Shown: positions 1-58,178 of the stretch, one piece after another
Layout: each line of letters opens with the position of its first letter
Numbering within the stretch: position 1 is the stretch's first letter
DNA from: Micrococcus sp.
GTDB taxonomy: Bacteria > Actinomycetota > Actinomycetes > Actinomycetales > Micrococcaceae
Direction: 5' to 3'
Length of the DNA: 64,000 nucleotides
NCBI RefSeq assembly: GCF_034179925.1
Contig: NZ_JAXFPG010000047.1
Location: forward strand, 6,487-70,486
Position numbers and translations under genes: made by a program
Notes under the pieces: generated by a model
The model's input: only the letters and a program-made list of their open reading frames with translations
Databases searched by the model: none
Told to the model about the DNA's origin: nothing

Positions 1-66
1 GTCCCGGTTCCGCAGGACGGTGAGCTTGTGGGCCACGAGGGGGTGATCGACGACATGAACGCGCAT
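1..66 (-). CDS. upp: Uracil phosphoribosyltransferase, N-terminal 22 codons (runs off window)
   Basis: Reverse strand reads MRVHVVDHPLVAHKLTVLRNRD, the typical actinobacterial Upp N-terminus; TAGCGT lies 7 nt before the ATG (leaderless pattern). Not in the ORF track. Confidence 0.85.
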   Translation of the reverse strand, partial: MRVHVVDHPLVAHKLTVLRNRD

Positions 67-153
67 GCCGCCCACGCTACCGCCCGGGTCCACGGCGCGC
101 CCGGCCCGCGCCGCCGGGCGGGCCGGACTCACCCGGTTGCATACCCTGGCCCG

Positions 154-690
154 GTGAGCAGCCCCCGCACTCCCCCGTCCCCGCCGCCCTCGGCGGCCCA
201 GGAGCACGCGTGGATGGGCCTGGCCCTGGACGCCGCCCGTGCCGCCGGCCGGGCCGGGGACGTGCCCATCGGCGCGGTCCTGGTGGGCGGCGACGGCGAG
301 GTGCTGGCCGCCGTCGGGAACGAGCGCGAGCAGCACCACGACCCCACCGCCCACGCCGAGGTCCTGGCCCTGCGCCGCGGCGCCGCCGCCCGGGCCGCCA
401 CGGGCGCACACGACGGCTGGCGCCTGGCCGACTGCACCCTCGTGGTGACCCTCGAACCCTGCCCCATGTGTGCCGGTGCCCTGCTGCTGGCCCGAGTGCC
501 GCGCGTCGTCTTCGGAGCCTGGGACCCCAAGGCCGGGGCCTGCGGCTCCGTGCTGGACGTGGTGCGCGACCCCCGCTTCAACCACACCGTGGAGGTCCGA
601 GCCGGGGTGCGCGCAGCCGAGTGCGCCGCCCTGCTGACCGACTTCTTCGCCGCCCACCGGGACCCGGGCACGATGCCACCGAACGCCTGA
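154..690 (+). CDS. tadA: tRNA-specific adenosine deaminase
   Basis: HAE...PCPMC zinc deaminase motif and FGAWDPKAGA; GTG at 154 follows TACCCT by 6 nt. Confidence 0.88.
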   Translation: MSSPRTPPSPPPSAAQEHAWMGLALDAARAAGRAGDVPIGAVLVGGDGEVLAAVGNEREQHHDPTAHAEVLALRRGAAARAATGAHDGWRLADCTLVVTLEPCPMCAGALLLARVPRVVFGAWDPKAGACGSVLDVVRDPRFNHTVEVRAGVRAAECAALLTDFFAAHRDPGTMPPNA

Positions 691-740
691 ACCGAGCGGT
701 TTGGGCCGGACCGCCGGGCTCAGGTAGGCTGTGGCGGTCT

Positions 741-831
741 GGTGACGTGTCCGAGCGGCCGAAGGTGCAGCACTCGAAATGCTGTGTACGGTAACCCCGT
801 ACCGTGGGTTCAAATCCCACCGTCACCGCCA
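741..831 (+). tRNA. tRNA-Ser(CGA)
   Basis: Acceptor stem GGTGACG/CGTCACC, anticodon arm CAGCA-CTCGAAA-TGCTG, long variable arm, GGTTCAAATCC T-loop, discriminator G and encoded CCA. Confidence 0.96.
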
Positions 832-836
832 GATGT

Positions 837-873
837 CCGGAAGCCCGGAGGCCTCGAGCCTCCGGGCTTCCGG
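837..873 (+). terminator. Perfect 16-bp hairpin after tRNA-Ser
   Basis: CCGGAAGCCCGGAGGC-ctcga-GCCTCCGGGCTTCCGG. Confidence 0.75.
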
Positions 874-964
874 CGTTCCGGGGCCGCCGGAGCGAGCGAT
901 TCCCCGGGCACAGGCCCCAGCGGGAGGGCTTATCCCGTCCGCCCCCGGTGCCATGATGGATGCC

Positions 965-1423
965 ATGTCCGTCCGGGTGTTGGCCATTGGCAAGAAGCAC
1001 GAATCGTGGGTGTCCGAGAGGATCACCCGCTACGAGAAGCGCCTGAAGAAGCCCTGGGACCTCACCTGGCAGCTGCTGCCCCACTCCTCCCGCCAGGAGG
1101 ATGCGGCCCGCACCGAGGAGTCGGACCGGATCCTCGCGAAGGTCGCCCCCGGCGAACACCTTGTGCTCCTGGACGAGCGCGGCAGGGGCTTCGACTCCCC
1201 CGGGCTCGCCCGGCACCTGCAGACACAGTTCGACGCCGGCCGGGCCGTCGTCGTGGTGATCGGCGGCGCCTACGGGGTGGACGAGCGCGTGCACGCCCGC
1301 GCGGACCGCGTGTGGTCCCTCTCGCAGCTCGTGTTCCCCCACCAACTGGTGCGGCTGATCCTCGCCGAACAGGTCTACCGAGCCCAGGAGATCGCCGCCG
1401 GACGGCCCTACCACCATGCCTGA
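965..1423 (+). CDS. rlmH: 23S rRNA (pseudouridine1915-N3)-methyltransferase
   Basis: VRVLAIGK, LLDERGRGFDS, VIGGAYG, SLSQLVFPHQLVRLILAEQVYRA motifs. Confidence 0.93.
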   Translation: MSVRVLAIGKKHESWVSERITRYEKRLKKPWDLTWQLLPHSSRQEDAARTEESDRILAKVAPGEHLVLLDERGRGFDSPGLARHLQTQFDAGRAVVVVIGGAYGVDERVHARADRVWSLSQLVFPHQLVRLILAEQVYRAQEIAAGRPYHHA

Positions 1424-1443
1424 GCCGGCGCAGGCGTGGAAGA

Positions 1444-1479
1444 GCCCCCCGGTGCTTCTGCGAGAGGCGTCCGGGGGGC
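1444..1479 (+). other. Long hairpin between rlmH and the Abi-like gene (terminator or antitoxin-RNA candidate)
   Basis: GCCCCCCGG/CCGGGGGGC outer stem plus TGCTTC/GAGGCG inner stem with G-U pairs; TATAGT follows at 1485-1490. Confidence 0.55.
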
Positions 1480-1522
1480 ATTCGTATAGTCGACACCATA
1501 CCGGAGGGGACGGCACGACACC

Positions 1523-2662
1523 ATGAGCACACCTGCTGAACGCGTTCTCGGGCTTCTCCCTCCGCGCCGGCTCGCGCCCTATCTGCATCGTTCGCAGGAT
1601 CCGGATGCCGCCCTCGAGTTCTACCGGTGGAGCCACGAGATGGCCTCGGAGTGCTGGACGGTCATCGCCCACTTCGAGGTCCTGCTGCGGCACCGCATCG
1701 ATCAGGCCCTGCAGGCGCACACCAGGGAGAGCAGGACGGGGATCCCGTGGTTCTTCCAGAGTTCGGCCCTGCCCGAAAGCGCACGAGAGCCGCTGCAGAG
1801 ACAGGTCGCACGACTGGAATCGGAGGGGCGACTGGACCGGGACCAGGTCGTCGCCGGCATGACCTTCGGCTTCTGGAAGTCCCTGTTCTCCTCGGACGAC
1901 CTGTGGCGAGAGGCCCTCCACCAGGTCTTCCCGAACCGTTCGGGTCTTCAGCGCAAAGACGTCACCGCCCGGCTGGAGAGCATCCGCAAGTTCCGCAACA
2001 GGGTCGCCCACCACGATTCCCTGCTCAACGTGGACATCCCCCACGAGGTCCGTTCCCTTCTCGAGCTCACCCGTTCCATGGACGAGGACTACGCCGCGTG
2101 GATAGAAGCGAACTCATCGTGGGCGGACCTCTACAGCGAGTCTCCCCATCAGCCCGCCGACACGGTGGTGGTGGCGGCTCGCGACGCCTGGCCCATCTAC
2201 ACCGCACTATGTGCACAGTCGGGCGAGGCGCCTCCCGCCTACATCTGTCAGCCCGGACGGTTCTTCAAACCTGTGGAGCGGCTCGGCTTCTACTCGGATC
2301 AGATGATCCACCAGGAGATCCCCCGCGTGCTCGCCCGGTTCGACAACATCGAGTGGACCCTGCAGAACGCAGGGGTGCTGGCCGCGTCCGCCTCCCGCGA
2401 CGAGAGGAAGATCGCTCGCCTGATCCAGTGGTCGGCGGGCCCGGGAGCCGTGTACTTCGACTTCGACGAGCAGGACGGCCCCGCCGGGCGGTTCCAGGTG
2501 TTCCTGCTCTCCGGCCCCGGCCATCCCCATCACAAGACACTGCCTGCCCCCGTCCCCCACCTCTCGCGAGGGCCGGGCAGCGCTTTCACCCAACGTCAGC
2601 GCTACGTCTCCGCCCACGCACTGGACACCGCACAGACCACCGGATCCCTCACGCATGCCTGA
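1523..2662 (+). CDS. Abi-like HEPN-domain protein with extra C-terminal domain
   Basis: N-terminus RRLAPYL...ALEFYRW...HFEVLLRHRID and MTFGFW fit the Abi-like family; HEPN motif RNRVAH (R-x4-H); RBS GGAGGG; overlaps the lhr start by 8 nt. Confidence 0.75.
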   Translation: MSTPAERVLGLLPPRRLAPYLHRSQDPDAALEFYRWSHEMASECWTVIAHFEVLLRHRIDQALQAHTRESRTGIPWFFQSSALPESAREPLQRQVARLESEGRLDRDQVVAGMTFGFWKSLFSSDDLWREALHQVFPNRSGLQRKDVTARLESIRKFRNRVAHHDSLLNVDIPHEVRSLLELTRSMDEDYAAWIEANSSWADLYSESPHQPADTVVVAARDAWPIYTALCAQSGEAPPAYICQPGRFFKPVERLGFYSDQMIHQEIPRVLARFDNIEWTLQNAGVLAASASRDERKIARLIQWSAGPGAVYFDFDEQDGPAGRFQVFLLSGPGHPHHKTLPAPVPHLSRGPGSAFTQRQRYVSAHALDTAQTTGSLTHA

Positions 2663-5600
2663 CACCCCCGACGCCGACGCCGTCCTCGCACGCTTCAGCG
2701 AGCCCACCCGCACCTGGTTCACGGGGGCGTTCGCCGGACCCACAGCAGCCCAGCTGGGTGCCTGGGATGCGATCTCCTCCGGGCGGCACGCGCTCGTGAT
2801 CGCCCCCACCGGCTCCGGCAAGACCCTCTCCTCCTTCCTCTGGGCGCTCGACTCGTTCGTGCGCGAGCCCGCAGACCCGGACGTCTCCGCCACCCGGGTG
2901 CTCTACATCTCCCCGCTCAAGGCCCTCGGCGTGGACGTCGAGCGAAACCTGCGGGCCCCGCTGATCGGCATCACGCAGACCGCACAACGGATGGGCACCC
3001 CCGTGCCGCGCGTGCGGGTGGGCGTGCGCTCCGGGGACACCCCCGCCGCCGAGCGCCGCCGCCTGCTGCAGGACCCCCCGGACATCCTCATCACCACCCC
3101 CGAGTCCCTGTACCTGATGCTGACCTCGCAGGCCCGCTCGGCGCTGTCCGGGGTGCGCACGGTGATCGTGGACGAGGTCCACGCGGTGGCCGGCACCAAG
3201 CGCGGCGCCCACCTGGCCGTCTCGCTCGAGCGCCTGGACGCCCTGCTGGAGCGGCCCGTGCAGCGCATCGGCCTGTCCGCCACGGTGGAGCCGGCCACGG
3301 AGGTGGCCCGGTTCCTCGGCGGGGTGCAGCCGGTGAGCATCGTCCGGCCGGCGTCCACGAAGCGCTGGGACCTGACCGTGGCCGTGCCCGTGGAGGACAT
3401 GACCGACCTGTCCGCCCCGCCCGCGAGCGCCGCAGCGGCCGAGGGGGTTGCCGGCCCGGAGGCCGGCGCGGTGGGCGGGTCGATCTGGCCTCACATCGAG
3501 GAGCGGATCGTGGATCTGGTGGCCCGGCGCCGCTCCACGCTCGTGTTCGCGAACTCCCGCCGCCTGGCCGAGCGCCTGACCGGCCGGCTCAACGAGATCT
3601 GGGAGGCCCGCCAGGAGGCCGCGGCCGCCGCCCACCACCCGGACCTGGCGCCCGGGTTCCGGGATCCGGCCTCCCCCGGACCGCAGGCGACGGGCGCACC
3701 TGCCCCAACCGACGACGTCGTCCCGCCCACCGCCGGTGAGCTCGTCGCCGACTGGTTGGGCACCGCCGGCGGGGAGACCCCGGCCGGGGCCCCTGAGGTC
3801 CGGCGGGGAACCCGCACCCCGGCGACGGGACCGGCCCAGGTGGCCGGGCAGACCGGCACCGCTTCCGGGACGGTGTCCGACTTCGCCCGCGCCCACCACG
3901 GATCGGTGTCCAAGGAGCAGCGGGCGATCGTGGAGGAGGCCCTGAAGACCGGTCAGATCCGCTGCGTGGTGGCCACCAGTTCGCTGGAGCTGGGCATCGA
4001 CATGGGTGCGGTGGACCAGGTGATCCAGGTGGAGTCCCCGCCGTCGGTGGCCTCGGGGCTGCAGCGGGTGGGCCGGGCGGGGCACCAGGTGGGGGAGGTC
4101 TCCCGGGGCGTGTTCTTCCCCAAGCACCGCGGCGACCTCGTAGACACCGCGGTGGTGGCCGAGCGCATGGTCGCCGGGCGCATCGAGGCACTGCGCATCC
4201 CGCAGAACCCCCTGGACATCCTCGCCCAGCACACGGTGGCGGCCGCGGCCGTGGAGGACCTCGAGGCCGAGGCCTGGTTCGACCTCGTGCGCCGCTCCGC
4301 CCCGTTCTCCGCGCTGCCGCACTCGGCCTACGAGTCCGTGCTGGACCTGCTGGCCGGCAAGTACCCCTCCGACGAGTTCGCGGAGCTGCGGCCCCGGGTG
4401 GTGTGGGACCGCGAGTCCGGCACCCTCGCCGCACGCCCCGGGGCGCAGCGGATCGCCGTGACCTCCGGCGGCACCATCCCGGACCGGGGCCTGTTCGGGG
4501 TGTTCCTGGCCTCCGAGGGGGCACAGGCCCCCGAGGGCTCCGCCTCGGCCGGGGACACCGGGGAGTCCGCCGCGGACGCCGGTTCGGCCCGCTCGGGCGG
4601 GCGCCGGGTGGGCGAGCTGGACGAGGAGATGGTCTACGAGTCCCGCGTGGGGGACGTGATCCTGCTGGGGGCCACCAGCTGGCGCATCGTGGACATCACC
4701 GCGGACCGCGTCCTGGTGCTGCCCGCCTACGGTCAGCCGGGCAAGCTGCCCTTCTGGCGGGGCGACGCGGCGGGCCGCCCCGCGGAGCTGGGCGACGCCG
4801 TCGGGCGTTTCCGGCGTGAGCTCGACGCCGACCCGGACGCCGCCCGCGACCGCCTGGCCGCCGCCGGCCTCGACGAGTGGGCCCGGGAGAACCTGCTCAC
4901 CTACCTGACGGACCAGCGCGAGGCCACCGGGCAGCTGCCCACCGAGCGCACGCTCGTGGTGGAGCGGTTCACGGACGAGCTCGGCGACTGGCGTGTGGTG
5001 CTGCACTCCCCCTACGGGATGGCGGTGCACGCCCCGTGGGCGCTGGCGGTGGGGGCGCGCCTGGCCCAGCGGTACGGGTTGGAGCCGAACTCGGGGGCGG
5101 CGGTGGCCGCGGACGACGGGATCGTGCTGCGCATCCCGCTGATGGACGCCGATCCGCCGGGGGCGGAGCTGTTCGCGTTCGCCCCGGAGGAGCTGGACGA
5201 GATCGTCACCGCCGAGGTGGGCGGGTCCGCACTGTTCGCCGCCCGGTTCCGGGAGAACGCGGCCCGCGCCCTGCTGCTGCCGCGGCGGAACCCGGGCAAG
5301 CGCATGCCCCTGTGGCAGCAGCGGCAGCGCTCGGCCCAGCTGTTGGACGTGGCCCGCCGCTACCCGAGCTTCCCGGTGATCCTGGAGACGGTGCGCGAGG
5401 TGCTCCAGGACGTCTACGACCTGCCCGCGCTGAAGGACCTGGCCGCCCGGGTGGCCTCGCAGGACGTGCGGATAGTGGAGGTCACGACGGCGGCGCCCTC
5501 GCCGTTCGCCCAGTCCATCCTGTTCGGCTACGTCGCCCAGTTCATCTACGAGGGCGATTCCCCCCTGGCCGAGCGGCGGGCCGCGGCGCTCTCCCTGGAC

Positions 5601-7916
5601 CCGGCGTTGCTGTCCGAGCTGCTGGGCACCGAGGAGCTGCGCGAGCTGCTGGACCCGGAGGTGATCGCCCGGGTGGAGGCCGAGCTGCAGCGCACCGCCG
5701 AGGGCCGGCACCTGCGCGGGGTGGAGGGGGTCGCGGACCTGCTGCGGCTGGTCGGCCCGCTCACCCCCGAGGAGGCCGCCGCCCGCGTGGTGGACGAGAC
5801 CTCCGGGGGCGGGGCCGGGGACGAGGCGGGTGAGGCCGGTGGGACGGCCGGGGACGACGCCGGCCCGGCCGCCCACCGGGAGGCCGTCGCCGGGCACCTG
5901 GCCGACCTCGAGCGCACCGGGCGGGCGTTCCGGTTCCGCTCCAGCGGGCAGGAGCGGTTCGCCGCGGTCGAGGACGCCGCCCGCCTGCGGGACACCCTGG
6001 GCGCACCGATCCCCATGGGCGTGCCGGTCGCGTTCCACGAGCCGGTGGAGGACCCTCTCGGGGACCTCGTGCGCCGGTACGCCCGTACGCACGGCCCGTT
6101 CACCGCGGCCGAGGCGGGGGCCGCGCTGGGACTCGGCGGCGCCGTCGTGCTGCCGGTGCTGCAACGCCTGGCCGCCGAGCGCCGCGTCTCCCAGGGCGCG
6201 TACCGCCCGGACGGGACGCCGGGGGCCACCGGCCTGGACGCCGAGTGGATCGACGTGGAGGTGCTGCGCACGGTGCGCCGGCGGTCGCTGGCCGCGCTGC
6301 GGGCCGAGGTGGAGCCGGTGGAGCAGGCCGCCTACGCCCGGTTCCTCGCGGACTGGCAGCACCTGCGGCCCCGCCCCGGGCGGCCCTCCCCCGCCACGCT
6401 CGAGGGGGTAGACGGGGTGGCCACCGTGCTCGACCAGCTGGCCGGGATGCCGCTGCCGGCGAGCGCCTGGGAGTCCCTCGTGCTGCCGGCACGGGTGCGC
6501 GACTACGCGCCGGGGCTGCTGGACGAGCTGCTGGCCACCGGCGAGTACGTGTGGTCCGGGGTGGGGGCCGGTACCGGCAACGACGGCTGGGTGGCCCTGC
6601 ACCCCGCCGACGCCGTGGACCTCACCCTCCGGCCTCCGCAGGCGCCCCCCGAGGACGTCCCCGCGGCGCGCACGGCCCTGAGGGAGGCCGTGCTGAAGGT
6701 GCTCGCCGGAGGCGGGGCCTGGTTCTTCCCTCAGCTTGTCGAACGGGTGCGGGAGGAGGCCGCCCGCCAGGACGCCGCGCCGGAGGGGGCCACCGACCTG
6801 CCGCGCGCCCCCGAGGTGCTCGAGGCACTCTGGGACCTCGTGTGGGCCGGCCGCGTGGGCAACGACACCTTCGCACCCCTGCGGGGCCTGCTCTCCCAGG
6901 GCCGCACCGCGCACCGCACCGGCCGTCAGACCCCGCGGGCCCGCACCGCCCGCACCGGCGGTGGACTCGGCGGGGGCCGCGGCCTGGGCGGCCGGCTGGC
7001 CGGGGTGCGCGGACGCGGCCGGTACGCCGGGCTCACCGCCGGGGACGCCGGCCCCGGCAGGGGCGCGGCCGGCGTCCCCGTGGGCACCGGCGGGCTCTCC
7101 GCGGCCGAGCACGCCCGCGCGGCCGGTCGCTGGTCCCTGCTGCCGGCCCCCGAGCAGGACCCGACCATCCGGGCCCACGCCGCCGCCGAGCTCCTCCTGG
7201 ACCGCTACGGGGTGATCACCCGCGGCTCCGTGGTCGCCGAGGAGGTCCCCGGCGGGTTCGCCGCCCAGTACCAGCTGCTCACCCGCATGGAGGACGCCGG
7301 GCAGGTGCGGCGCGGGCATTTCGTGGAGCGCCTCGGCGGCGCCCAGTTCTCCACCGGCGCCGTGGTGGACCGCCTGCGCTCCTTCCACCGGGACGGCCCG
7401 GACGATGACGCCGACACCCCCGCCCAGGCACCGCCCCCGTACGACGCCGCCCCCCGCCTCGACGTCTTCGGCATGCCCATCGCCCCACCCCCCGGCGCGA
7501 CACCCCGCCCCACGGACCCGGCACCGGCCCCGCCGGCGCTCGCGCTCGCGGCCACGGACCCGGCCAACCCGTACGGGGCCGCCCTCGACTGGCCCGAGCT
7601 GCCGCCCGGCCCGGACGGTGTGGCCCCCACGGGGCACCGCCCGGGCAGGAAGGCGGGGGCCGTCGTCGTGCTGGTGCAGGGCCGGCTGGTGCTGTACATG
7701 GAGCGCGGCGGCCGGACCCTGCTGGGCTTCGAGGAGGACCCCGCCGTGCTGCGTGCGGCCGCGGAGGCGCTCGTGTGGGCGCTGCGCGCGGCCAGGACGG
7801 AGCGGCTGAGCCTCGAGAAGCTCAACGGCGGGCCGATCCTGGGCACGCCGCTGGCCGAGGCGATGCTGGCCGCCGGGTTCTACTCGAGCCCGTCGGGGAT
7901 CCGGTTCCGCAGCTGA
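2655..7916 (+). CDS. lhr: Lhr-family ATP-dependent helicase (large form)
   Basis: APTGSGKT, DEVH, ATSSLELGID, QRVGRAGH and the C-terminal ATDPANPYG motif; 1753 aa. Confidence 0.93.
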   Translation: MPDTPDADAVLARFSEPTRTWFTGAFAGPTAAQLGAWDAISSGRHALVIAPTGSGKTLSSFLWALDSFVREPADPDVSATRVLYISPLKALGVDVERNLRAPLIGITQTAQRMGTPVPRVRVGVRSGDTPAAERRRLLQDPPDILITTPESLYLMLTSQARSALSGVRTVIVDEVHAVAGTKRGAHLAVSLERLDALLERPVQRIGLSATVEPATEVARFLGGVQPVSIVRPASTKRWDLTVAVPVEDMTDLSAPPASAAAAEGVAGPEAGAVGGSIWPHIEERIVDLVARRRSTLVFANSRRLAERLTGRLNEIWEARQEAAAAAHHPDLAPGFRDPASPGPQATGAPAPTDDVVPPTAGELVADWLGTAGGETPAGAPEVRRGTRTPATGPAQVAGQTGTASGTVSDFARAHHGSVSKEQRAIVEEALKTGQIRCVVATSSLELGIDMGAVDQVIQVESPPSVASGLQRVGRAGHQVGEVSRGVFFPKHRGDLVDTAVVAERMVAGRIEALRIPQNPLDILAQHTVAAAAVEDLEAEAWFDLVRRSAPFSALPHSAYESVLDLLAGKYPSDEFAELRPRVVWDRESGTLAARPGAQRIAVTSGGTIPDRGLFGVFLASEGAQAPEGSASAGDTGESAADAGSARSGGRRVGELDEEMVYESRVGDVILLGATSWRIVDITADRVLVLPAYGQPGKLPFWRGDAAGRPAELGDAVGRFRRELDADPDAARDRLAAAGLDEWARENLLTYLTDQREATGQLPTERTLVVERFTDELGDWRVVLHSPYGMAVHAPWALAVGARLAQRYGLEPNSGAAVAADDGIVLRIPLMDADPPGAELFAFAPEELDEIVTAEVGGSALFAARFRENAARALLLPRRNPGKRMPLWQQRQRSAQLLDVARRYPSFPVILETVREVLQDVYDLPALKDLAARVASQDVRIVEVTTAAPSPFAQSILFGYVAQFIYEGDSPLAERRAAALSLDPALLSELLGTEELRELLDPEVIARVEAELQRTAEGRHLRGVEGVADLLRLVGPLTPEEAAARVVDETSGGGAGDEAGEAGGTAGDDAGPAAHREAVAGHLADLERTGRAFRFRSSGQERFAAVEDAARLRDTLGAPIPMGVPVAFHEPVEDPLGDLVRRYARTHGPFTAAEAGAALGLGGAVVLPVLQRLAAERRVSQGAYRPDGTPGATGLDAEWIDVEVLRTVRRRSLAALRAEVEPVEQAAYARFLADWQHLRPRPGRPSPATLEGVDGVATVLDQLAGMPLPASAWESLVLPARVRDYAPGLLDELLATGEYVWSGVGAGTGNDGWVALHPADAVDLTLRPPQAPPEDVPAARTALREAVLKVLAGGGAWFFPQLVERVREEAARQDAAPEGATDLPRAPEVLEALWDLVWAGRVGNDTFAPLRGLLSQGRTAHRTGRQTPRARTARTGGGLGGGRGLGGRLAGVRGRGRYAGLTAGDAGPGRGAAGVPVGTGGLSAAEHARAAGRWSLLPAPEQDPTIRAHAAAELLLDRYGVITRGSVVAEEVPGGFAAQYQLLTRMEDAGQVRRGHFVERLGGAQFSTGAVVDRLRSFHRDGPDDDADTPAQAPPPYDAAPRLDVFGMPIAPPPGATPRPTDPAPAPPALALAATDPANPYGAALDWPELPPGPDGVAPTGHRPGRKAGAVVVLVQGRLVLYMERGGRTLLGFEEDPAVLRAAAEALVWALRAARTERLSLEKLNGGPILGTPLAEAMLAAGFYSSPSGIRFRS

Positions 7917-8004
7917 GGCGGCACCGGTGCCCTCGTCCCCGGGATGTCTAGGCTGTGTGTGGAGGGGGGGCAGGGCAGCCGGACCGACGGAGAAGAGGAG
8001 ACGC

Positions 8005-8253
8005 ATGAAGCGATCACCGTGGGGCCTCGGGCGGATCTGCGTTCTGCTCCTCGCGCTGGGGGTGATGGCGTACACCGTGGGAGGCGTCCTCTCACTGCAG
8101 GAGTACCGCAGCATGCCCGAGGCCGTCCGCGCGGATGCCCCGACCGGACCCGTGGCCGCGACCCTGCTCTGGACGGGTGTCGGGCTGTGCGCGGCGGGCG
8201 GTGCCGCTCTCTGCGTGCTGCTCGTCCGCCGAGTGAGGAGGCTGAGCCGGTGA
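8005..8253 (+). CDS. Small two-TM membrane protein
   Basis: RBS GAGGAG; two hydrophobic segments; stop overlaps the next start (GTGA). Confidence 0.6.
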   Translation: MKRSPWGLGRICVLLLALGVMAYTVGGVLSLQEYRSMPEAVRADAPTGPVAATLLWTGVGLCAAGGAALCVLLVRRVRRLSR

Positions 8254-8492
8254 GGGCGGACGGTCACGTCGTCTCCTGGAACGAGGAGGAGGGCTGGGGT
8301 GTGCTCTCCTCCGAGGCGACCCCCGGCGGGTGCTGGGCGCACTTCAGCGCGCTCGAGGGCGACGGGTTCCGGCAGGCACAGCCCGGGGAGCGGGTGCGCT
8401 TCACCTTCGCCGCCACCGGCCCGCAGGGGCAGGACGGCTTCTCGTACCGGGCGGAGAGGGTCGAATTCCCGGACCGGGCCCGCACCGACTGA
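8250..8492 (+). CDS. Cold-shock (CSD/OB-fold) domain protein
   Basis: GHVVSWNEEEGWGV and WAHFSALEGDGFR resemble RNP1/RNP2 of CSD proteins. Confidence 0.72.
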   Translation: MRADGHVVSWNEEEGWGVLSSEATPGGCWAHFSALEGDGFRQAQPGERVRFTFAATGPQGQDGFSYRAERVEFPDRARTD

Positions 8493-8532
8493 CCGCAGGT
8501 CCGGCACCGGTGCCGCCCGGTAGGTTCGGGGC

Positions 8533-9543
8533 ATGCCCGAAGGTGACTCCCTGGTCCGTGCCGCGCACCGGCTGCGCCCCGTGCTGGCCGGTCGCACGCT
8601 GGCCCACGCGGACCTGCGCGTGCCCCGCCTGGCCACCGCACGCCTGGCCGGGTGGACGGTGGCCGCAGTGGAGCCGCAGGGCAAGTGGCTGCTCCTGCGC
8701 CTGACCCCGCCGCCGGGGTCCGCGGCCGCACCCCACACCCTGGCCTCCCACCTGAAGATGGAGGGCCGCTGGCTCGTCACCGGCCGTCAGGCCCGCTGGG
8801 CGGCCCCCGGCTGGCAGGTGCGGGCCGTACTGGAGACCGGAGAGCACCGGCTGCTCGGCGCCCAGCTCGGCCGTCTCGAACTGGTGCCCACCGCCCACGA
8901 GGACCGGCTGCTCGGCCACCTCGGCCCGGACCTGCTGGACCCGGCCTGGGACGGCGGCGCGCACGGGGCGCGACTGCTGGCCGAGGGGGTGCGCCGCCTG
9001 ACCGCCCGCCCCGAACGGCCAGTGGGCCTGGCGCTGCTGGACCAGTCCGTGGTGGCCGGCATCGGCAACATCTACCGGTGCGAGTCGCTGCTGCTGGCCG
9101 GCCTGGACCCCCACCGGCCGGTCGGCTCCGTCCCGGACGCCCCCGGGCTGCTCACCCTCGCCCGGGACCTGCTGCGCGCGAACGTCCCCCCGGCCGCCCC
9201 CTACGTGAGCTGGCCGCGCACCACCACGGGGGTCCGGGCGGACCCTTCCGGCCCCTACGGGCTGCGGGTGGACGTGGTGGACCGCGGCTTCCCGCCCGGG
9301 CTGCCGGGCACCGCCCTCGACGACGCCGGCACCCCCCTCGACGCCACGCGCCCGGGCCCGGACGCGGGGACCGGCGGGGCGGCGGCCCCGGAGGCGAGGC
9401 CCGCGCGTCGTGCCCAGTACTGGGTGTACGGGCACCGGAACAGCCCGTGCGGGCGCTGCGGCGGGCCCGTGACCTTCGAGGAGTTCGGCTCCCCGCAGGA
9501 TGACGAGCGCCAGCTGTGGTGGTGCCGCACCTGCCAGCGCTGA
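8533..9543 (+). CDS. nei: Fpg/Nei family DNA glycosylase/AP lyase
   Basis: N-terminal MPEG, GKWLL, HLKMEG, H2TH motif DQSVVAGIGNIYRCE and zinc finger CGRC...CRTC. Confidence 0.9.
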   Translation: MPEGDSLVRAAHRLRPVLAGRTLAHADLRVPRLATARLAGWTVAAVEPQGKWLLLRLTPPPGSAAAPHTLASHLKMEGRWLVTGRQARWAAPGWQVRAVLETGEHRLLGAQLGRLELVPTAHEDRLLGHLGPDLLDPAWDGGAHGARLLAEGVRRLTARPERPVGLALLDQSVVAGIGNIYRCESLLLAGLDPHRPVGSVPDAPGLLTLARDLLRANVPPAAPYVSWPRTTTGVRADPSGPYGLRVDVVDRGFPPGLPGTALDDAGTPLDATRPGPDAGTGGAAAPEARPARRAQYWVYGHRNSPCGRCGGPVTFEEFGSPQDDERQLWWCRTCQR

Positions 9544-58124: not shown

Positions 58125-58163
58125 GACGAGGCCCCCGGAGGATGATCCTCCGGGGGCCTCGTC
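58125..58163. terminator. Perfect 19-bp palindrome between convergent genes
   Basis: GACGAGGCCCCCGGAGGAT-g-ATCCTCCGGGGGCCTCGTC. Confidence 0.75.
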
Positions 58164-58178
58164 ATGCCGGGCCTGGGC

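Follow-up and report, generated by a model that had tools for sequence, protein, structure and literature searches.

What is a gene for an Abi-like protein, preceded by a hairpin, doing between rlmH and lhr, and does the hairpin belong to it? The question is posed by a 64,000-nucleotide (nt) stretch of a Micrococcus sp. contig (NZ_JAXFPG010000047.1), called the window throughout, in which an open reading frame (ORF) of 379 amino acids (aa), here named abi (1523-2662, plus strand), starts after a 99-nt gap from the end of rlmH at 1423 and overlaps the start of lhr by 8 nt (lhr ATG at 2655, abi stop codon at 2660-2662). An earlier note, made from the sequence alone, had pointed to the HEPN motif RNRVAH of the protein, to a hairpin in the gap (1444-1479) followed by TATAGT and to the lack of an adjacent protein antitoxin. 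These sequence statements all hold, the lengths and the overlap included, and abi is the sole protein gene between rlmH and lhr. Our analysis suggests that positions 1424-2662 form a compact, horizontally mobile module of about 1.2 kb with two genes, one for a small RNA and one for a predicted RNase, and by analogy with AbiF systems the cis-encoded hairpin RNA is most likely the antitoxin of the AbiF-like protein.

The RNA element beside abi

Homologues of the protein fall into 81 database clusters, with at least 509 confirmed matches among species-representative genomes, the best 80 of which were fetched as loci. Their hosts include Micrococcus, Arthrobacter, Nocardia, Amycolatopsis, Rothia, Corynebacterium, Kocuria, Micromonospora, Bifidobacterium, Solirubrobacterales and others. 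A covariance model built from the homologous loci, R1, finds the element directly beside abi at 33-70 bits in 74 of the 80 genome loci, across many genera and contexts, and more weakly in two more; of the four loci without a match, two are cut by contig ends and two carry C-terminally degraded proteins. Elsewhere in the 764 kb searched, the strongest R1 matches are degenerate second copies in two loci (L010 and L062, 25-27 bits), and the rest do not exceed 19 bits. Apart from these two loci there is a single RNA copy per locus, and tandem repeats of the ToxIN type are absent. The window itself has one strong match (1434-1483, minus strand, 36.9 bits, E = 4e-9) and a marginal one at 58127-58167 (15.8 bits, E = 0.08); its copy is among the lowest-scoring of the family, and the window hairpin is far beyond chance.

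The same linkage is seen in metagenomes, where a 19-nt core pattern found 85 loci in assembled contigs, 39 of them with the full motif and 33 of these 39 with a HEPN gene adjacent. The other 46 matches to the core pattern are consistent with chance hits in GC-rich DNA rather than the motif. The core pattern had 0 matches in viral contigs, and tblastn against phage genomes returned distant HEPN-domain matches only, with no sign of a phage-borne subfamily.

Read on the abi strand, the element consists of an A-rich stretch, AGCCCCRGGCGC, a variable part and CAGAGGCGACACYGGGGCGTTC, spans about 45-55 nt and stands just before the gene in almost all loci. From an alignment of 63 distinct copies we derived a structure with a basal stem GCCCCRG/CYGGGGC, two bulged U's, an inner stem CGC/GCG, an unpaired CUC(U) and a G-C pair closing a variable apical stem. 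In this alignment 96.5% of the cells hold standard pairs compared to 88.1% in shuffles, and 52 cells are changed on both sides compared to 12.7. The earlier note had named covariation of the hairpin across homologous loci as a check, and it is present: the covariation score is 0.217 versus 0.061 in shuffles, none of 500 of which reaches the observed value. When the partners are slid by 1-3 columns, 29-55% of the cells are paired. Compensatory switches occur at column pair 11/47 from A-U to G-C (35, 24 and 4 sequences), at 16/44 from C-G to G-C, U-A or G-U, and at the apical closing pair from G-C to C-G. RNAalifold recovers the same helices independently. Moreover, several lineages carry apical hairpin inserts of unrelated sequence and perfect pairing (GACUC...GAGUC, CCGC...GCGG, ACUUC...GAAGU, CAUUG...CAAUG).

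The 5′ half of the RNA, GAACGCCCCRGUGYCGCCUCUG, is near-invariant across genera whose proteins are only 40-47% identical, which points to sequence-specific recognition. No Rfam match, the abiF motif RF03085 included, was found on either strand for positions 1-3500 of the window or for seven family loci (at E up to 1 for the window and up to 5 for the loci). Judged by its covariation, the element is a structured RNA and constitutes a new candidate RNA family absent from Rfam.

A distant variant lies on plasmid pREC1 of Rhodococcus erythropolis PR4 (L173, 2880-3010), where a 31%-identical homologue is preceded by a diverged element with two CAGAGGCGG boxes and a flipped basal stem (GGGGCCCGA...TCGGACCCC), in which CCCC/GGGG is turned to GGGG/CCCC. 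R1 misses this variant, and the RNA family is therefore broader than the model. At the distant Abi_2 homologues P0071 and P0074, an R1 scan gave no match.

Several loci show degenerate or disrupted forms. The second RNA copies mentioned above lie just upstream of the main copy (L010 3803-3852, L062 155-186). Orphan copies of the motif (58-62 bits) with no recognisable abi nearby occur in L096 (1438-1488), L103 (554-603), L110, L123, L153 and L160; they may have been left behind when the toxin gene was lost, or be RNA genes in their own right. In L019 (2540-4001), about 1.4 kb of inserted DNA, probably a mobile element disrupting abi, parts the RNA and the first abi codons from the rest of the gene.

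A candidate for a small ORF inside the hairpin, based on a plus-strand NTG with an upstream purine tract, was rejected, since the variable loop length breaks the frame between lineages.

An AbiF-like protein and the role of its RNA

The protein was described in the earlier note as an Abi-like HEPN RNase, and this part of the description stands, whereas its C-terminal ASCH-like domain, about half of the protein, had been missed. R158, N159, R160, H163 and H164 are invariant in an alignment of 21 homologues (motif RNRxAHH), and the R-x4-H catalytic motif RNRVAH spans residues 158-163 (1994-2011). The window protein itself scores 23 bits against Pfam Abi_2 (PF07751; E = 1e-4), below the gathering score of 25.6. 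Among the 21 family members, Abi_2 matches 17 (best E = 2.4e-8), the PADLOC profile PD-T4-5 matches all 21 (best E = 7e-16) and the PADLOC AbiD profile matches 11. AlphaFold2 modelled the whole protein with a pLDDT of 87.6 and the N-terminal domain alone with 95. For this all-helical HEPN domain (residues 1-205, 1523-2137), the sole meaningful fold match in the PDB is 8vz6_A, the PbAbiF dimer bound to its non-coding RNA (ncRNA; probability 1.00, TM score 0.68); all others have TM scores of at most 0.29. The match surfaced in the fold search with the isolated domain only, as the search with the whole protein is dominated by the ASCH-like domain. We assign the family to AbiF/Abi_2 because of the Abi_2 matches in 17 of 21 relatives, the PD-T4-5 matches in all of them and the PbAbiF fold match, the window protein alone being sub-threshold; it is a divergent member of this fold family. 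A PDB sequence search with the family profile returned nothing useful.

The C-terminal alpha/beta domain (residues ~210-379, 2150-2659) best matches the Zymomonas mobilis ASCH structures 5y6c, 5gus and 5guq (Foldseek probability 0.99-1.0, E = 4e-3 to 4e-2, TM score by target ~0.5), with Escherichia coli YqfB as a weaker match. Profile searches with family members found no Pfam family, ASCH included, that covers this domain. Such domains bind RNA or modified bases, examples being the ribonuclease ZmASCH, the ac4C amidohydrolase YqfB and PUA-like readers in fusion with defence nucleases; here the likeness is one of fold, and a match at the sequence level was not found. The domain is an add-on found in Actinomycetes and may serve as an extra sensor that binds RNA or modified nucleotides. 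Solirubrobacterales homologues are ~210 aa long, consist of the HEPN domain only and retain the small RNA, so that the RNA appears to partner with the HEPN domain. Two homologues (L071 and L076, from Marinactinospora and Streptomonospora) have lost the ASCH-like half, carry low-complexity tails instead and lack the RNA motif; they look like decaying copies.

The source annotation calls a protein of 340 aa (P0001) that starts at M40. Residues 16-36 are conserved in homologues (R16, D26, A30, Y34, W36), and 1523 is therefore the better start. Our analysis thus accounts for a gene that has no name in the source annotation and was started too late there.

What do such a protein and such an RNA do together? 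Two AbiF pairs provide the precedent. For AbiFCd-RCd22 of Clostridioides difficile the RNA has been shown by experiment to be an antitoxin, and R and H mutants of AbiF lose toxicity (PMC12373285). An antitoxin role of the RNA was likewise shown for PbAbiF-AbiFr, in which a HEPN homodimer binds two ncRNAs whose bulged bases inhibit the RNase (PMC12737573; PDB 8VZ6). We read the module as an RNA-antitoxin system because its N-terminal fold matches PbAbiF, because a structured RNA whose unpaired bases do not vary is strictly linked to the HEPN domain, HEPN-only proteins included, and because a protein antitoxin is lacking. On this analogy the chances lie somewhat better than even that it is an actinobacterial variant of the AbiF-ncRNA type III toxin-antitoxin or abortive-infection systems. 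Direct support for the module comes from the way RNA and gene are linked, from the conserved RNA structure with its promoter and terminator signals, from the folds of the protein and from the junctions of the insertion. By analogy, the RNA would be transcribed and bound by the protein, which would be toxic when free and act in defence.

In the proposed mechanism, an RNA of some 50 nt, transcribed from the minus strand, would form one hairpin whose G/C-rich basal stem doubles as a terminator and is topped by the bulged U's, the 3-bp inner stem, the invariant unpaired CUC and the variable apical stem, and the divergent gene would encode an AbiF-type HEPN RNase fused to an ASCH/PUA-like domain. 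The RNA, abundant and short-lived, would bind each HEPN protomer of a dimer and hold the RNase inactive by blocking the composite R-x4-H active site with its unpaired bases. Upon transcription shut-off or RNA degradation, as in phage infection or plasmid loss, free protein would cut cellular or phage RNA and stop growth.

The genomic contexts are varied. In Nocardia abi lies downstream of ychF, and in Arthrobacter sp. UM1 among genes of sugar and aromatic catabolism. In Bifidobacterium cuniculi (L048, 154-8737), the RNA and abi are placed between the BREX gene brxC and a pglX-type methyltransferase gene, a classic position for accessory defence genes. Full-length copies are carried on Rhodococcus and Arthrobacter plasmids, and the RNA element is also found on a Rhodococcus plasmid. 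Occurrence on plasmids and in a BREX locus fits a role in addiction or defence.

The module resembles the known AbiF-ncRNA systems (PbAbiF-AbiFr, PDB 8VZ6; AbiFCd-RCd22; RF03085) in its single R-x4-H HEPN protein, the fold of the N-terminal domain (TM score 0.68, probability 1.0), a short conserved hairpin RNA with unpaired bases that are functionally important in those systems, the immediately adjacent gene, the lack of a protein antitoxin and the location on mobile DNA; AbiF-type systems likewise lack long antitoxin arrays. It differs from them in an abi gene that by promoter spacing is mostly leaderless, in the additional ASCH/PUA-like domain, and in its hosts, which are Actinomycetota rather than Bacillota, Pseudomonadota or Bacteroidota. 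The C. difficile study places the Abi_2/AbiF family mainly in Bacillota and Pseudomonadota (PMC12373285). PD-T4-5 (PADLOC PDLC04038), a single-gene Abi_2-type anti-phage system of E. coli, is the best profile match over the HEPN core, but the match spans only ~75 residues around the catalytic helix and no ASCH-like domain is aligned. ToxIN, CptIN and TenpIN type III systems follow the same logic, in which a small cis-encoded RNA neutralises a protein endoribonuclease, and act in abortive infection and plasmid addiction; in contrast, their toxins are not HEPN proteins, and their antitoxins are made as tandem repeats in a co-directional precursor that the toxin processes, whereas here a single hairpin has its own promoter. 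The literature searched held no published description of such an actinobacterial system or of an AbiF-type HEPN-ASCH fusion.

Some of our results speak against counting the module among AbiF defence systems. At the covariance-model level the RNA has no similarity to RF03085, so the likeness to AbiF is functional and not one of RNA homology. The RNA is mostly divergent with its own promoter overlapping that of abi, unlike the co-transcribed 5′ leader with terminator of AbiF. Most genomic copies are surrounded by housekeeping genes or ordinary intergenic regions, not by defence islands. In addition, the ASCH/PUA-like assignment is of moderate confidence, as given by the moderate Foldseek score alone.

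Among other roles for an RNA that binds the protein, that of a required cofactor seems to us rather unlikely. Such a cofactor would act as scaffold or activator, or as a handle similar to a guide or sensor that governs the timing or the targets of cleavage by the HEPN-ASCH protein. The extreme conservation of the unpaired bases and of the 5′ half, set against proteins at 40-47% identity, would suit a cofactor, as would the orphan RNA copies, which a pure antitoxin would allow and not require. AbiF has also been proposed as the ancestor of Cas13, in which the RNA gained a guide role (PMC12737573). However, the RNA has no variable spacer-like segment except the short apical stem, there is one hairpin per locus, and in the closest relative with a solved structure the RNA serves as an inhibitor. 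A little less probable again is that the hairpin is the dedicated RNA subunit of a HEPN-ASCH ribonucleoprotein, in which the CUC, the bulged U's and the ASCH domain would detect nucleic acid that is modified or of phage origin and activate the RNase. The module would then represent a second AbiF-type lineage with a coevolving RNA independent of the abiF motif, with the overlapping divergent promoters as a built-in control of the RNA:protein ratio. If true, such a sensing particle would be an actinobacterial parallel to the trajectory from AbiF to Cas13.

Read as an RNA antitoxin and its toxin, the module would add a widespread actinobacterial branch, with at least 509 matches among species-representative genomes, to the AbiF-ncRNA systems. 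It would be set apart by a strongly conserved RNA outside Rfam, divergent overlapping promoters with a mostly leaderless toxin mRNA, the ASCH-like domain, and the ~210-aa HEPN-only form of Solirubrobacterales. For curation it supplies a new RNA family and for structural studies a compact RNA-protein pair, and it is a candidate for phage defence or plasmid addiction in Nocardia, Rhodococcus, Corynebacterium, Rothia, Amycolatopsis and Micromonospora.

Promoters and the strand of the RNA

The earlier note had taken the hairpin to be an RNA antitoxin made from the plus strand. Of this claim, the antitoxin role remains the function best supported by analogy, and the strand has to be revised, as promoter and tail signals favour the minus strand. 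On the strand opposite abi, 80 of 99 distinct loci have a TANNNT box that ends 10-11 nt upstream of the C in CGCCCC, whereas upstream of the hairpin on the abi strand there is no such enrichment (0/99). A -35 match to TTGACA of at least 4/6, mostly TCGAC[AG], is found 16-19 nt upstream of this -10 box in 61% of loci, compared to 11% in shuffles. The sequence TCGAC[AG] is the opposite strand of abi codons 2-6 (conserved MPxV(D/E), ..GTCGA..; e.g., L009 at ~3975-3990), 16-19 nt and mostly 18 nt upstream of the RNA -10 box. Thus, the first abi codons appear from their sequence to double as the -35 box of a divergent RNA promoter. Transcription would end at a T-rich tail, with 4.4 T's on the RNA strand among the 8 nt that follow the stem, compared to 2.65 on the other strand.

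The element is divergent from abi in 73 of 77 strong instances. It is co-directional in six loci, from Micromonospora (L039, L042, L044), Actinoplanes (L047) and two metagenome contigs (L097, L125). The first four, which we read directly, have a TTGAC-like -35 and a TANNNT -10 box at a spacing of 17-18 nt, 7-9 nt before ACGCCCC, followed by the element, a T-rich tail and, further on, abi's own -10 box.

The abi gene has a signal of its own between hairpin and start codon. A TANNNT box, mostly TAGCAT, lies 5-9 nt before the in-frame abi start in 56 of 76 distinct loci (exactly 6 nt in 44), usually without a Shine-Dalgarno sequence. This is leaderless spacing, and the hairpin is therefore predicted to lie outside the abi mRNA. 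The RNA and abi -10 boxes overlap back to back, so that RNA polymerase might occupy one promoter at a time and the ratio would be biased to the RNA.

The layout in the window lineage differs slightly. The likely -10 box of abi is the TATAGT at 1485-1490 (plus strand), with a predicted transcription start site at ~1497 and a leader of ~25 nt that contains a Shine-Dalgarno-like GGAGGGG (1503-1509) ending 13 nt before the ATG. Interleaved with it is TATGGT (1495-1500, minus strand), the likely -10 box of the small RNA, with a predicted RNA 5′ end at ~1488. L181, L182 and M. luteus L001 preserve TANNNT at both boxes, that of the RNA reading TAGAGT, TATCCT and TATCAT, respectively. The predicted small RNA gene, 5′-(C)UAUACGAAUGCCCCCCGGACGCCUCUCGCAGAAGCACCGGGGGGCUCUUCC-3′, thus covers 1434-1488 on the minus strand (~50-55 nt), with its 5′ end placed by the -10 box and its 3′ end by the stem and a pyrimidine tail. 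According to folds and the family alignment, its hairpin core (1444-1479, minus strand) comprises a 9-bp stem P1 (GCCCCCCGG/CCGGGGGGC), P1b CGC/GCA with 2 bp and a C·A mismatch, the conserved unpaired CUC(U) and a minimal apical stem. A simple terminator and sigma-70 scan of positions 600-3000 of the window found nothing; the actinobacterial TANNNT boxes were tested separately from it.

Taken together, these signals make the minus strand, and with it transcription divergent from abi, quite probable for the small RNA. Other results count against this strand. In the window, the inner stem of the minus-strand copy contains the C·A mismatch and the U tail is weak, and the fold energy is -33.4 kcal/mol on the plus and -26.3 kcal/mol on the minus strand. 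Thermodynamics does not discriminate between the strands, which fold about equally well (the 57-nt hairpin stretch has z = -4.3 on the plus and -4.1 on the minus strand). The model-based alignment contains 17 G-U versus 9 A-C pairs on the proposed strand, which favours that strand but is a weak test. No RNA sequencing runs with the locus were found: the window sequence occurs in DNA metagenome runs only (milk, pig, dust), and a Nocardia locus in no RNA runs. An RNA of 50 nt would be lost in standard libraries, and runs searched by contig would not reveal the strand.

If the hairpin were instead made on the plus strand, it would be a 5′ leader or cis element of the abi transcript, similar to RCd22, and act as attenuator, antitoxin or both. 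We consider this improbable, even if known AbiF ncRNAs are co-directional leaders (PMC12373285). In the window, the plus-strand hairpin from G1444 to C1479 has 16 pairs and one bulge and uses G-U pairs for its more stable fold, but these G-U pairs are peculiar to the window lineage and not conserved, and in several other lineages plus-strand C·A mismatches are G·U pairs on the minus strand. Read-through from rlmH may also yield a plus-strand transcript in the insertion lineage, where an ORF described below crosses the hairpin and ends on the abi start. Against a general leader stand the counts given above for both promoters (0/99 versus 80/99 loci for the RNA, and 56/76 loci with the abi -10 box at leaderless spacing beyond the hairpin), and the Micromonospora and Actinoplanes loci, in which the element is inverted relative to abi and still has its full promoter on the other strand.

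Slightly more improbable is that the element acts as DNA or as a mere transcription signal, i.e., as an operator or cruciform in the abi promoter region or as an insulating bidirectional terminator. In most loci it lies at roughly -35 to -80 of the abi promoter, and this position would be compatible with such a role, as would its shape, a G/C stem followed by T's. However, the module has no gene for a DNA-binding regulator. Its variable apical inserts with compensatory pairing, its bulges and the unpaired bases that do not vary are what one expects of a single strand that folds, not of a duplex operator; a terminator would not preserve its loop sequence across classes, and the element keeps its own promoter when inverted.

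The insertion between rlmH and lhr

The earlier note's description of a module wedged between rlmH and lhr is borne out by empty sites and flanking repeats. In the closest relatives by RlmH identity (Micrococcus sp. ACRRV at 86% and another group at 82%), rlmH directly overlaps lhr, and neither abi nor the hairpin is present. The overlap measures 8 nt in L175 (ATGCGTGA) and 4 nt (ATGA) in L176-L178. The inserted block in the window is exactly 1424-2662, flanked by the 9-nt direct repeat CATGCCTGA, which is single-copy in the empty sites L175/L176. The left junction is marked by the copy at 1415-1423, with the stop codon of rlmH and a relic start codon of lhr, and the right junction, by comparison with the empty sites, by the copy at 2654-2662, with the abi stop codon and the functional lhr start (ATG at 2655). 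The site is likewise occupied by the insertion in three more relatives, L181 (80% protein identity), L182 (62%) and M. luteus L001 (57%).

Repeat and empty sites indicate that the 8-nt overlap of abi and lhr is the ancestral stop/start overlap of rlmH and lhr, duplicated at insertion. By this comparison the apparent link to Lhr is an insertion scar and not a newly evolved coupling, and the proposal that the module had become translationally coupled to Lhr does not stand as a new link: the overlap already exists in the empty sites, and other genomes show no link of abi to lhr.

The empty sites also settle to which gene the hairpin belongs. The earlier note had held that a hairpin after rlmH in relatives without abi would make it a plain terminator, and none is present there. 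That it is an rlmH terminator or a chance inverted repeat, as its place directly after the rlmH stop in GC-rich DNA with its common hairpins might suggest, has next to no likelihood, since it is missing in the nearest relatives without abi (L175-L178), stands beside abi in 74 of 80 genomes in unrelated contexts, and was not found as a terminator by the consensus scan.

From the relic lhr start codon, a 36-codon ORF (1416-1526, plus strand) runs through the hairpin, and its stop codon falls on the abi start codon (ATGA). L181 (536-646, ATGA) and M. luteus L001 (5864-6001, TGATG) have an ORF of this kind as well, and in L182 (312-1433) the ORF is fused in frame to abi. It may relay translational coupling from rlmH through this upstream ORF to abi and lhr. 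An open frame of 36 codons is not rare in DNA of 72% GC, and the ORF may also have arisen by chance.

Within positions 1-9000 of the window, all genes lie on the plus strand, in the order tadA-like deaminase gene (28-690), tRNA-Ser (741-828), rlmH (965-1423), abi and the long lhr (2655-7916); the tRNA gene thus stands between tadA and rlmH. The ORF after lhr (8533-9543) resembles a glycosylase of the Fpg/Nei type by its N-terminal sequence, and the corresponding gene after lhr in the M. luteus locus (L001) encodes Fapy_DNA_glyco and H2TH domains.

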